A stretch of DNA of 64,000 nt from Candidatus Uhrbacteria bacterium. GTDB taxonomy: Bacteria > Patescibacteriota > Patescibacteriia > UBA9934. Below the pieces are notes generated by a model, which made no database searches, was not told the DNA's origin, and worked only from the letters and a program-made list of their open reading frames with translations. The stretch spans positions 198,002 through 262,001 of the forward strand of contig CAWGHH010000002.1 of assembly GCA_963822405.1 (NCBI GenBank). Reading direction: 5' to 3'. The translations under genes were made by a program, and so were the position numbers. Shown here piece after piece: positions 56,805 through 59,768 of this stretch; position 1 is the first letter of the stretch; each line of letters begins with the position of its first letter.

Positions 56805-56893
56805 TCCGGTTTCCGGTATCCGGTTAAGGAAGGGGAATCACTGAATTTAAATTCTTTGTTCAGGCTCATTCACCGGACACCGGAAACCGGAGT
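56805..56893. repeat. About 90-bp palindromic repeat, copy A (direct partner at 59666-59768)
   Basis: The arm ctccggtttccggtatccggt pairs with accggacaccggaaaccggag. It encloses taaggaaggggaatcactgaatttaaattctttgttcaggctcattc. Confidence 0.7.
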
Positions 56894-56909
56894 GGTCACA
56901 CTATCTTTT

Positions 56910-57776
56910 ATGAAATTTGTAGATACTCATTGTCACGTTCACTTTCAAGCCTTTAAGGATGACATGGACGAAGTTGTTGGCCGAGCGCTTGATAAGGGCG
57001 TTGGAATGATTACAGTCGGCACGCAGTCGACGACTAGCAAGAACGGAATTGCCTTGGCTGAGCGTTATGACAATGTTTGGTGTTCGGTAGGTTTGCATCC
57101 AAACCATTTGCACGCACAAGAATTTGCGGACGACAGTGAATTGTCGCCGAATGATCCCCAACACACGCACGGAGTGAAAATTAAGACGCGTGCTGAGCAT
57201 TTCGACGCGGAATATTACCGTGAGTTGGTGAAACATCCAAAGGTTGTGGCGATTGGAGAATTTGGTTTGGATTATTTTAGAGTACCGCCGAATGTGGATT
57301 TAGAACAATTAAAAGCCGATCAGTCTTTTGCTGTACGAGAACAACTGCGTTTTACGACGCAATCTCAGAAGCCCGTAATCATTCATTGCCGAGACGCTCA
57401 CGCGGACCAAATCCAATTACTACGTGAGGAAATCGCTAAAGACGGATTGACTCGACGCGGAGTAATTCATTGTTTTACAGGAACCGCTGAGGAGGCGGCG
57501 GCTTATCGGGAAATTGGTTTTTATCTTGGTTTTACCGGTATCGCCACTTTTGGAAAAAACGTGATGGAGGTGGTCCGAGAGATACCGCTCGATCAAATTC
57601 TGATAGAGACTGATTCGCCGTACTTATCGCCGGCTCCTTTGCGTGGCAAAAGAAACGAACCGGCCAATGTCATATATATCGCCGAAACCATCGCAAAGCT
57701 CAAAGGAATCTCAGTTGATGAAGTCGCTCGAGTCACGACTGAAAATGCTGGAAAACTATTTGGGATAAATGTTTGA
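56910..57776 (+). CDS. tatD: TatD family hydrolase (metal-dependent DNase)
   Basis: MKFVDTHCHVHF, an internal HCR, and DSPY are present. Confidence 0.85.
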   Translation: MKFVDTHCHVHFQAFKDDMDEVVGRALDKGVGMITVGTQSTTSKNGIALAERYDNVWCSVGLHPNHLHAQEFADDSELSPNDPQHTHGVKIKTRAEHFDAEYYRELVKHPKVVAIGEFGLDYFRVPPNVDLEQLKADQSFAVREQLRFTTQSQKPVIIHCRDAHADQIQLLREEIAKDGLTRRGVIHCFTGTAEEAAAYREIGFYLGFTGIATFGKNVMEVVREIPLDQILIETDSPYLSPAPLRGKRNEPANVIYIAETIAKLKGISVDEVARVTTENAGKLFGINV

Positions 57777-57832
57777 CGTTCGCGAAAAAGTCGTGTACTC
57801 TTTGCCACCGTGCCCATTAAGGGATCGGAGGT

Positions 57833-58234
57833 TTGATGACTTGCGAAAGAACACGCGAGGACTTCGCGGCCTTGGGTGATCAATCTGAGGGGGTGACAAT
57901 GGCTAAAGCATCCCACGGACACTCAAAAATTTCGTGGTTTTCTGATGCTGGCACCGGTGGTCGGCCAGAAAACATTGAAGAAATTCTGATGGCCCTACTG
58001 ACGTGCAACAACTCGAACGAGTGGTTTGCTGACAAAGAGGAACTGTGTGAGTTCCTTGTCGGCCTTGGTGAGGGCATGCAATCGGATACGGCCATTTGTG
58101 GGATTGTTGATTACCTTCTGAGCGCCGGCTTCGTGCGTATGGGTGAGACCCGCGATGGCGTGCCAGGCGTCCCAATCTGTGCCGACCGGCGAATACGACA
58201 GTTTTTGGAACGAATACGACGCACCTCTCGGTAG
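57833..58234 (+). CDS. Hypothetical protein
   Basis: The best of several overlapping ORFs in a moderately GC-rich stretch. Confidence 0.25.
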   Translation: MMTCERTREDFAALGDQSEGVTMAKASHGHSKISWFSDAGTGGRPENIEEILMALLTCNNSNEWFADKEELCEFLVGLGEGMQSDTAICGIVDYLLSAGFVRMGETRDGVPGVPICADRRIRQFLERIRRTSR

Positions 58235-58333
58235 CGACTCCTCGGGCCGGTTTTCCAACAGGGAAGCCGGCTCTTATCATTTCCACAGTGTTCTTGACCT
58301 ATTTTCTGACCAACCGTATACTACCGGCGTTTT

Positions 58334-58594
58334 ATGGCGGGCGATGATGTGCGGAAATATTACGTGTTCGCGATGCGAGCCTTTGCAGACGTGCTTGGAA
58401 CCATTCTGGTTCCGGCAGTTGCTGCGGTCGTGATCAAGAATGTGTTTCACCTTCCGTACAGCATCTTTCTCGTCCTAATAATCCTCGCCTTCGTCTTGAC
58501 GGCGTTTGTTCTCACGAAAAAGATTAATCAGTATGGCCGATCGTTCCAACAACTCAACAAGTCTGAAGATGAGCTTCGCGGCCGTCGCAGCTGA
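58334..58594 (+). CDS. AtpZ/AtpI-like small membrane protein
   Basis: An 86-aa protein with two transmembrane segments lies immediately before atpB. Confidence 0.45.
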   Translation: MAGDDVRKYYVFAMRAFADVLGTILVPAVAAVVIKNVFHLPYSIFLVLIILAFVLTAFVLTKKINQYGRSFQQLNKSEDELRGRRS

Positions 58595-59366
58595 ACCTCT
58601 CTTTCACTTTGGAAATTTCCCCGTAACTAATTCCTTGCTGAACGCTTGGATTTCAGTTGCGGTTTTTTGTCTCATTGCTTTTGTCGCTTCTCGACGCAAG
58701 ACTCTCGTGCCACACGGCGTCCATAATTTCATCGAAGCAGTTATTGAGGGCTTGCTCGGCGAAGTACAGAAGGTTACCGGTGACCGGAAGCGCGCGCTCA
58801 TGTTCTTCCCGGTTTGCGCTACTTTGTTCTTGTATATTCTTGTAAACAATTGGATGGGTTTGTTGCCTGGCACGGGCACGATAGGTTGGAGTGGTGGGGA
58901 AGAGTTCTTGCCGTTGTTCAGACCGGCGGCTGCCGACTTAAACTTTACGTTGGCGATTGCTGTCTTCTCGGTTGTACTCGTTCAGTTCGCAGGTATTAGA
59001 GCTACTGGACTCATGAACTACGGCAGTAAGTTTGTGAACATCCGCGGAATCTTTCAGGCGATTCCTAAGGGACCGACAGCAATCGTTGTTGCGTTTATCG
59101 AGTTCGGAGTTGGGTTGATCGAAATTGTGAGCGAGCTCGCCAAGATCATCTCTCTTTCGCTCCGATTATTCGGAAATGTTTTCGCCGGCGAAATTTTGAT
59201 CGGCGTGATGATGAGCTTGTTCTCATTTGTCCTTCCGGTACCGTTCATGTTCTTGGAAATTCTCGTCGGCGCCATTCAGGCAACGGTCTTCTCTATCCTT
59301 GTCCTTGCGTTCTTAACCGTCGCGACCGATGCGCATGGAGGACATGAAGAAGAGGCGCACCACTAG
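58569..59366 (+). CDS. atpB: F0F1 ATP synthase subunit a
   Basis: LSLRLFGNVFAGEIL (the essential Arg region) is present. The start is the ATG at 58569; 58533 is an alternative. Confidence 0.85.
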   Translation: MSFAAVAAEPLFHFGNFPVTNSLLNAWISVAVFCLIAFVASRRKTLVPHGVHNFIEAVIEGLLGEVQKVTGDRKRALMFFPVCATLFLYILVNNWMGLLPGTGTIGWSGGEEFLPLFRPAAADLNFTLAIAVFSVVLVQFAGIRATGLMNYGSKFVNIRGIFQAIPKGPTAIVVAFIEFGVGLIEIVSELAKIISLSLRLFGNVFAGEILIGVMMSLFSFVLPVPFMFLEILVGAIQATVFSILVLAFLTVATDAHGGHEEEAHH

Positions 59367-59430
59367 GTTGCAGGTTGCGGGTTGCAGGTTAGTGAAAACT
59401 AATCTATAACGCGGAACGTATAACCATTAA

Positions 59431-59661
59431 ATGTCACTCGGTATGAACGCTGAAACAATGATGTTACTTGCTAAGGCCTTGGCAATCGCGCTTGGTGGAT
59501 TTGCTCCAGCAATTGGTATCGGTATGATTGGTTTTTCCGCCATGAACAGCATTGGTCGTAACCCAGAAGCAGCTGGAAAGATTTTCGTTCCAATGTTGCT
59601 CGGCATGGCCTTCGCAGAAGCAATCGCGATTTACGCACTTATCATTGCGTTTACGCTCTAG
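59431..59661 (+). CDS. atpE: F0F1 ATP synthase subunit c
   Basis: A 76-aa hairpin protein carries the [11 protein letters not shown] carboxylate helix. Confidence 0.9.
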
Positions 59662-59665
59662 TCCA

Positions 59666-59768
59666 CTCCGGTTTCCGGTGTCCGGTTTCCGGTTAAGGAA
59701 GGGGAGTTACTGAATTTAAATTCTTTGTTCAGGCTCATTCACCGGAAACCGGACACCGGAAACCGGAT
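59666..59768. repeat. About 100-bp palindromic repeat, copy B, inside the ATP synthase operon between atpE and atpF
   Basis: The sequence ctccggtttccggtgtccggtttccggttaaggaaggggagttactgaatttaaattctttgttcaggctcattcaccggaaaccggacaccggaaaccgg shares its core with the copy at 56805. Confidence 0.7.

Follow-up and report, generated by a model that had tools for sequence, protein, structure and literature searches.

Tandem arrays of heptanucleotides are known from cyanobacteria as short tandemly repeated repetitive (STRR) sequences. Heptamers are reported to be the most abundant of the long simple-sequence repeats (LSSR) of prokaryotes and have been attributed to polymerase slippage (PMC4679880). 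Repetitive extragenic palindromes (REP) form another group of intergenic repeats; they are ~20-40 nt long and carry a conserved head, REPIN are doublets of such units, and both are mobilised by RAYT, the REP-associated tyrosine transposase (PMC3116915). In Geobacter metallireducens, inverted pairs of three to five tandem 7-9-nt units (classes 1-3) have been described, which are multicopy and intergenic and are drawn as hairpins (Aklujkar et al. 2009, PMC2700814). One of these pairs lies between the co-transcribed genes proB and proA, and the pairs were read as IHF/HU-type sites for global regulators, a reading left untested in that study (PMC2700814). Here we describe a palindromic element with heptad arms in a 64,000-nt stretch of a Candidatus Uhrbacteria genome (positions 198,002 to 262,001 of contig CAWGHH010000002.1, assembly GCA_963822405.1; this whole stretch is called the window below). 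It is present in two copies, one upstream of tatD and the other inside the ATP synthase operon, between the genes for the c and b subunits (atpE and atpF).

We consider it probable that these two copies belong to a lineage-specific, non-coding palindromic repeat family of a Patescibacteria clade. In size and position the family resembles REP and MITEs (miniature inverted-repeat transposable elements); its symmetry would be kept by slippage, template switching and gene conversion, and the copies would be co-transcribed with the surrounding genes and tolerated there. The architecture is best read as one of a widespread but little-described kind, that of a selfish or structural repeat.

Architecture of the two copies

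The first-pass annotation of the window had placed two palindromic copies at 56805-56893 and 59666-59768, and had described long arms of ccggtttccgg / ccggaaaccgg units as well as an identical central segment. Both copies are real and slightly longer than that (table 1). The arms proved to be inverted arrays of tandem heptads, a structure newly seen here: Tandem Repeats Finder gives a period of 7 with 3.0-4.0 units in all four arms (units TCCGGTN / NACCGGA), and every arm therefore holds at least three 7-nt units in non-coding DNA. In its general layout the element consists of inverted arms of three or four heptads, an imperfect stem extension of 5-7 bp formed by the bases inside the heptads (TTAAGGA ... 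TCATTCA), and a loop of ~35 nt. The arms of the two copies differ by exactly one heptad on each side (3+3 versus 4+4), and the heptad number is 3 or 4 in relatives too.

As direct repeats the copies are 93% identical over 87 nt, free of gaps. The inverted arms comprise 28 nt at 89% complementarity in copy 1 and 33 nt at 94% in copy 2, with 35 nt between the arms in each, and with arms of this length both copies show the terminal inverted repeats and the short non-coding core of a MITE. The identical segment is a 36-nt core, CTGAATTTAAATTCTTTGTTCAGGCTCATTCACCGG, which is unique to the two copies within the 64 kb and is matched in 0 of 100 dinucleotide-preserving shuffles. The motif CCGGTTTCCGG, at no more than one mismatch, occurs 11 times in the window against 1.0 expected, and 10 of these 11 occurrences lie inside the two elements. 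As a separate observation, the pentamers CCGGT and ACCGG are about twice as common as expected across the whole window outside both elements (96 and 77 observed versus roughly 42-53).

Single-sequence folding predicts very stable hairpins on the plus strand (copy 1, -47.6 kcal/mol, z -6.6; copy 2, -66.2 kcal/mol, z -9.7), and the predicted folds of the minus strand are comparable (-49.1 and -64.9 kcal/mol). One reading frame is open through the element; it has no homologue in a search of 5.8 billion proteins, and this search gave no candidate for an open reading frame (ORF) called over another copy. A Shine-Dalgarno sequence in the loop (AAGGAAGGGGA) was considered and dropped, since AAGGA forms an imperfect stem extension with TCATTC, and two relatives that carry the element (loci L021 and L022, see below) do not conserve the purine run.

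With so few copies, the similarity could in principle be due to chance, to a structureless local duplication or to an assembly artefact, although nothing besides the low copy number speaks for this. Apart from the shuffles, a separate Logan assembly (run ERR12037365) reproduces the arm and loop sequences, and homologues are present in several other assemblies; such an origin is hardly conceivable. The Logan contigs end within the shared core on both sides, which is the expected behaviour of a genuine repeat in a short-read assembly.

Presence and absence in related genomes

Contigs encoding AtpF homologues of 93-73% identity, whose source names are Patescibacteria or Candidatus Uhrbacteria, were taken as relatives. 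The gene order cvpA-tatD-hyp-atpBEFHAG is conserved among them, hyp being a hypothetical gene. In L022 (AtpF 84%) the element occupies both orthologous junctions. In L021 (AtpF 93%) it is located between atpE and atpF, and another palindrome (CCCATCCTGAGCGAGAGCGAAGG...) is nested in its loop. In L025 (AtpF 73%) the sequence CCACCAGGTAATAGGTTTC stands right after the atpE stop codon and is followed by the same second palindrome as in L021; in addition, this contig carries a complete four-heptad hairpin between atpD and atpC. L158 (AtpF 76%) has the left-arm heptads alone at the atpE-atpF junction, AGGTTTGAGGTGTGAGGT, with an alignment score that is reached by 1 of 1000 shuffles. The four relatives L024, L028, L159 and L029 (AtpF 83-89%) have atpE-atpF spacers of just 21-28 nt, and in L024 the cvpA-tatD spacer measures 7 nt and the copy is absent. 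Finally, a hairpin with the loop type of the L025 atpD-atpC copy is found in L117 between a bactofilin gene and a diacylglycerol-kinase-like (DAGK) gene. Considering the copies at atpD-atpC and at bactofilin-DAGK, the family is not tied to the atp operon.

The first-pass annotation had allowed for a random local duplication that is missing from the atp operons of relatives, and had raised the idea of a mobile element caught in a tolerant site. The family is found in those operons, with the element or its remnants between atpE and atpF in L021, L022, L025 and L158 and short spacers in four others, and the second idea gains support in the form of a repeated, probably mobile palindrome, which is present in some relatives and absent in others, occurs at other junctions and has received a nested insertion. 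Polymorphic presence at orthologous sites combined with copies at non-orthologous sites is also the distribution characteristic of MITEs. In neighbour-joining trees of AtpF and AtpH the full copies fall into two subclades and the remnants into outgroups. The simplest history is an old occupation of the atpE-atpF junction followed by at least three losses; probably the junction was occupied before the clade diversified, and the element was later lost or degraded several times. Treating the short spacers as deletion remnants was given up: their similarity to the 3′ loop part and right arm is only suggestive in L028 and L029 and there is none in L024, so ancestral occupancy is inferred from L025 and L158.

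Several points weigh against the proposed repeat family. Just two copies are seen within the 64 kb; no target-site duplication appears at either copy when filled and empty junctions are compared by eye; and no transposase, RAYT or TnpB is encoded among the 62 window ORFs scanned against Pfam. Because both window junctions are also occupied in L022, vertical inheritance together with local gene conversion could explain the window copies without any transposition. The long persistence at the atpE-atpF junction, the almost perfectly paired stems and the recurrence in different genomes of a conserved 16-nt loop motif could reflect a selected function, and slippage, template switching and conversion are themselves read from the pattern. 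Moreover, when the short spacers are compared with the L021 element, the score is reached by 12 of 1000 shuffles for L029 and 21 of 1000 for L028, both uncorrected, and L024 shows no similarity.

An alternative is an element that does not move at all. It would be old and would have formed in place at the atpE-atpF junction by heptad slippage and symmetrisation of its arms; a single copying event, either a duplication or an ectopic gene conversion, would have brought it to the nearby cvpA-tatD junction. Hairpins of this sort at other places would be of independent origin. The double occupancy in L022, the lack of a target duplication and of a transposase in the window, and the resemblance of the L028 and L029 spacers to the 3′ loop part and right arm would all agree with such an origin. 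On the other hand, related loop types stand at non-homologous junctions (L025 versus L117), and the entry of a whole, sharp-ended unit into a 7-nt spacer is itself an insertion event. We judge formation in place to be very unlikely.

Concerted change of arms, units and copies

The heptads are of the type TCAGGTN / NACCTGA in relatives and TCCGGTN / NACCGGA in this genome, and the opposite arm compensates in every heptad. When five homologous copies are aligned, pairing in the 27-pair main helix amounts to 87%. In seven of its pairs both partners differ between copies, and all three aligned heptads show this at position 2 (C-G against A-U). The covariation score is reached in 0 of 500 shuffles, and shifting the partners abolishes the pairing. 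The loop behaves in the same manner: variants common to the copies within one genome (GGGGARTYACTGAATTT in the window, TGTGACTTACTGAATT in L022) are lacking from the same-site copies of the other genome. The evolution of the element is concerted across units, arms and copies. Avoidance of restriction sites was rejected as the cause of the switch between CCGG and CAGG, the window holding 269 CCGG sites against ~195 expected.

Heptad-stem hairpins outside the clade

A scan of metagenomes for three CAGGTNN units, 30-60 nt and two NNACCTG units recovered at least 120 loci (L030-L149) with CAGGT-heptad hairpins. Among the matches listed, to which the figures for these hairpins refer here and below, the GC content of the contigs is 34-72% (median 59%), the heptad consensus is CAGGTKT, and Watson-Crick pairs are predicted for 59% of the NN positions that the pattern leaves free. 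Of 85 classifiable matches 49 have co-directional ORFs on either side, with the stop and the start codon both typically no more than a few tens of nucleotides away; 9 are in convergent and 10 in divergent spacers, and 17 are inside an ORF, which by crude ORF calling means one of at least 100 aa. The loops of these hairpins are mostly unrelated, which would suit independent formation in place, the origin weighed above.

Viral contigs hold the CAGGT hairpin pattern at six loci and two composition-matched controls at none and one, all of which are small numbers; the CAGGT arm is 5′ in these six loci, against two loci for the pattern with swapped arms, too few to conclude. Hairpins of the CCGGT type were found at no locus in viral contigs, and a scan of these contigs with the arm pattern of the window gave one-sided (CCGGTTT)n microsatellites only. 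A BLAST search against plasmids and phages returned a single match, to a simple (ACCGGAN)n array of the one-sided kind in Burkholderia, and none in phages; a scan of a genome-contig collection with a 21-nt core gave one chance match, in the coding region of a metagenome-assembled genome of Eubacteriales. A full-text search of the literature yielded no description of these heptad sequences, nor of palindromic repeats in Patescibacteria.

These observations bring up the question whether the heptads are read by a protein. By analogy with the Geobacter precedent, which includes the pair between proB and proA (PMC2700814), each heptad could be a binding unit, as DNA or as RNA, for a nucleoid protein or a regulator, the inverted arrays would make up a composite site, and the switch between CCGG and CAGG would follow a change in protein specificity. 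The strict 7-nt periodicity, in which a core of 5 nt is conserved and two positions vary, the joint switch of all heptads in one genome, and the six CAGGT hairpins of viral contigs against none and one in the controls are consistent with a binding array. No candidate protein was identified, however; heptad order and number vary freely, stems can pair in shifted registers, the elements are dispensable in close relatives, and unrelated genomes hold simple one-sided arrays of these heptads, which is expected from slippage alone. A binding array is thus unlikely.

We suggest, tentatively and as the less probable side of the matter, that heptad-stem hairpins (CAGGTKT; here the rare CCGGTKT) form a distinct, widespread and unnamed class of bacterial intercistronic elements with a generating or maintaining mechanism of its own. 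This could be a heptad-reading protein or a self-symmetrising process of slippage and template switching that rewrites all units, arms and copies. If so, the Patescibacteria atp-operon copies, which are full, nested, one-armed or lost, would lend themselves as a natural series to the study of that mechanism, and a specific mechanism would offer a new handle on how operon palindromes of bacteria arise, persist and are tolerated.

Junctions, folding and the atp operon

A Pfam scan confirms the gene context given in the first-pass annotation (upstream of tatD; between atpE and atpF). The order is the CvpA-family gene, copy 1, tatD, a small hypothetical gene, atpB, atpE, copy 2, atpF, atpH, atpA and atpG (table 1). 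The stem of copy 1 ends 17 nt before the tatD ATG, and the stem of copy 2 starts 6 nt past the atpE stop codon. The gap between atpE and atpF amounts to 116 nt, compared with 1-2 nt for the remaining atp junctions of the window. The GC content of the window is 47.6%, and a Shine-Dalgarno-like motif precedes 10 of 63 ORFs, by crude start calls.

Table 1. Coordinates of the heptad elements, their parts and adjoining features in the window.
Feature	Position	Strand	Description
Element copy 1	56803-56895		cvpA-tatD junction; first base is the last base of the cvpA stop codon; 14 nt left to the tatD ATG
Copy 1, left arm	56805-56825		Three heptads, TCCGGTT TCCGGTA TCCGGTT; then AAGGA at 56826-56830, imperfect stem extension
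Copy 1, right arm	56872-56892		ACCGGAC ACCGGAA ACCGGAG; preceded by TCATTC extension at 56866-56871; one A/C mismatch versus left arm
Element copy 2	59663-59768		atpE-atpF junction; starts 2 nt past the atpE stop; ~9-10 nt left to the atpF ATG
Copy 2, left arm	59667-59694		Four heptads, TCCGGTT TCCGGTG TCCGGTT TCCGGTT; then AAGGA at 59695-59699
Copy 2, right arm	59741-59768		ACCGGAA ACCGGAC ACCGGAA ACCGGAT; preceded by TCATTC at 59735-59740; predicted stem of 27 consecutive pairs
Shared 36-nt core	56841-56876 (copy 1), 59710-59745 (copy 2)		3′ loop part and start of right arm
CvpA-family gene (PF02674)	56324-56803	+	Stop 56801-56803; upstream of copy 1
tatD (PF01026)	56910-57776	+	ATG at 56910; downstream of copy 1
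atpE, c subunit (PF00137)	59431-59661	+	Stop 59659-59661; upstream of copy 2
atpF, b subunit (PF00430)	59778-60311	+	ATG at 59778; downstream of copy 2
atpB-atpE spacer structure	59365-59426	+	(GGTTGCR)x3.7, i.e. (CAGGTTG)n heptads; imperfect pairing with TATAACG CGGAACG TATAACC

No terminator-like or promoter-like site found in a scan of the window coincides with either copy. A U-tract after the stem is absent at both copies (the sequence past the stem of copy 2 is ATCTTCTAAC), and neither copy has the makeup of an intrinsic terminator. A terminator or promoter reading was rejected, consensus sites being absent at the elements. Rfam 15 has no match in the window at gathering score; by E-value the only match to the element is the generic hairpin mir-3718, with 23 bits where 78 are needed. 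No tRNA was found in the window.

Strand preference of folding is absent in the Patescibacteria copies. In 33 metagenomic hairpins between co-directional genes the sense strand is the more stable in 14 and the antisense strand in 17 (Wilcoxon p = 0.54). As neither strand folds better, the transcript bears no G.U signature of selection. In some stems the best fold pairs the arms one heptad out of register. Concerted change, strand symmetry and shifted registers fit a process at the level of DNA.

This bears on the proposal, made in the first-pass annotation, of a dedicated hairpin that sets the c:b stoichiometry or attenuates read-through. The REP in malE-malF and the puf intercistronic hairpins are analogues, and after transcription the hairpin could protect the upstream atpB-atpE message from 3′ exonucleases, or could pause or attenuate RNA polymerase, with more c than b subunit as the outcome. 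It sits exactly between c and b in an operon whose other window junctions are 1-2 nt, its predicted folds are very stable, the site is occupied or bears remnants in five of nine related genomes, and compensating changes keep the stems paired. On the other side, four relatives with the same operon make do with spacers of only 21-28 nt, the element is also present at cvpA-tatD and its own relatives at atpD-atpC and bactofilin-DAGK, no U-tract follows the stem, there is neither sense-strand preference nor enrichment of G.U pairs, and another repeat disrupts the element in L021 and L025 without loss of the operon. We regard a functional mRNA hairpin as quite unlikely. The proposal of a dedicated role in c:b stoichiometry, faced with relatives lacking the hairpin and with its presence at unrelated gene junctions, is not supported; a side effect on mRNA stability or processing is possible.

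A further structure built of heptads is located in the spacer between atpB and atpE (table 1). It is kept in L022 (9600-9670), L024 (9660-9740) and L025 (9575-9640), including relatives without the main element. In the window its sense strand folds far better than the antisense strand (-27.1 versus -13.4 kcal/mol) because of G.U pairs. The spacer of L021 has a different sequence, of which the antisense strand folds better. RNAalifold on the atpB-atpE spacers gave no consensus long helix, and the single-sequence folds disagree on the favoured strand. The structure may be an older, degenerate heptad hairpin or a leader structure of atpE.

The operon shows one more peculiarity, at ~62915-62930 in atpG, where there is an apparent frameshift: the N-terminal 250 codons (62206-62958) are read in one frame and the conserved C-terminus (...GKAALE*), which ends at 63084, in another. 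The frame switches at a GGG run, owing either to a single wrong base in the assembly or to a genuine frameshift.

A possible course of maintenance and its meaning

Returning to a palindromic repeat family that is tolerated in operons, we can outline how it might be maintained. The element would live and evolve as DNA. Its heptad arrays would expand, contract and become homogenised through replication slippage, as the pattern of units suggests. Template switching from arm to arm is known from quasi-palindrome correction, and an intramolecular event of this kind could keep the arms complementary. The two copies, 2.9 kb apart, would be homogenised through gene conversion or re-copying. Dispersal to new junctions would need a trans-acting enzyme and would leave no target duplication.

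Once inside an operon, the element would be co-transcribed and the long hairpin would fold out of the way. Once the hairpin has folded, the stop codon of the upstream gene, 1-6 nt from the stem, would come to lie near the start codon of the downstream gene, which is 10-17 nt away from the stem, and this proximity plausibly keeps the cistrons translationally coupled. That the cistrons would remain adjacent is a plausible reason why such sites tolerate the element. Similarly tight spacing is seen across the metagenomic hairpins. If the upstream atpB-atpE mRNA is protected, or if RNase III cleaves, this would be a side product and not a conserved means of controlling c:b stoichiometry.

For annotation this means that the 116-nt gap between atpE and atpF holds a resident palindromic repeat and should be annotated neither as a terminator or small RNA nor as the boundary of an operon. 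In a wider perspective, the streamlined ~1-Mb genomes of the candidate phyla radiation still hold several families of intergenic palindromes, and such palindromes can enter an essential operon, be lost again and act as landing pads for each other. The wholesale switch between CCGG and CAGG, with compensation in the other arm, offers a clean case, found in nature, of a palindrome that evolves in concert.

Other palindromes and further observations

A second palindrome family, of ~90 bp, is unrelated to the heptad element. It is represented in the window at 30580-30668 and 52254-52344, in L022 at 3004-3101 and in L024 at 2334-2416, and has arms ...AACAAAACAACCAGTGTTGTCGAGAAATTT, a 19-nt spacer, and A-rich and T-rich flanks. 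In relatives it lies between convergent genes for an M17 peptidase and AhpC, and it has the appearance of a conserved bidirectional terminator, with repeats at other places in the window.

The third family has the ends GTCATCCTGAGC.GAGCGAAGGATC ... GATCCTTCG ... CTCAGGATGAC. Its one copy in the window (37035-37112) is located between the enolase gene and a gene for a Pif1-like helicase. It is far more frequent in L025 (4085-4215, 6075-6200, 6690-6782, 9893-9975, 12490-12575, 13490-13590 and 18990-19090), where it fills several spacers, three of them in the atp operon. Further copies are present in L021 (565-636) and L024 (7125-7200), and it is a member of this family that the heptad element of L021 holds in its loop.

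Elsewhere in the window, an ORF of 1857 aa at 5786-11359 encodes a protein of the alpha-2-macroglobulin type with a HINT/intein-like domain at residues 1122-1237. The gene at 3886-5010 encodes a protein with NUDIX and Tad2-like (Thoeris anti-defence 2-like) domains, which is unusual for the chromosome of a bacterium as opposed to a phage. A full RhuM-family gene is located at 20753-21763, and a short RhuM fragment lies beside a Fic/DOC fragment (40426-40788 and 40860-41132); the RhuM and Fic/DOC pieces may be remnants of mobile or defence islands.

Comparison with known systems

The families ERIC/IRU, Correia/NEMIS, RUP and BOX share with the present element a length of ~100 bp, non-coding sequence and a single hairpin made from long inverted arms; they too lie between genes, often in operons, are co-transcribed, are present or absent at orthologous sites and receive nested insertions (PMC3184786, PMC2229807). 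The MITEs of the ERIC and Correia type have unique terminal repeats, whereas the arms described here are heptad arrays of variable number. The present element also differs from them in having no target duplication, no related insertion sequence in the window and no similarity to a curated family, and in being present in two copies in 64 kb. To the REP, BIME (bacterial interspersed mosaic elements) and REPIN group it is akin as an extragenic palindrome that inserts without target duplication, forms families within a genome, occupies operon spacers and serves as a target for other elements (PMC3116915). The short unit, the head and the doublet of that group are replaced here by a single heptad-arm hairpin of ~100 bp, and the 64-kb window holds two copies and no RAYT.

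With respect to the arms, the heptanucleotide repeats (cyanobacterial STRR and TAACTGA arrays; LSSR, PMC4679880 and work cited there) are similar as intergenic 7-nt arrays that vary in number. Those arrays are direct and on one strand, whereas here two inverted arrays, matched in number and sequence, surround a loop, and the whole unit is repeated together with its loop. The paired tandem repeats of Geobacter, whose units MTYCTGA, GTTGCTYN and TCTCCGTS differ from TCCGGTN (window) and TCAGGTN (relatives) and which belong to another phylum, are the closest published architecture in a comparison that covers the arms only: in both, multicopy arrays on opposite strands are separated by a variable spacer.

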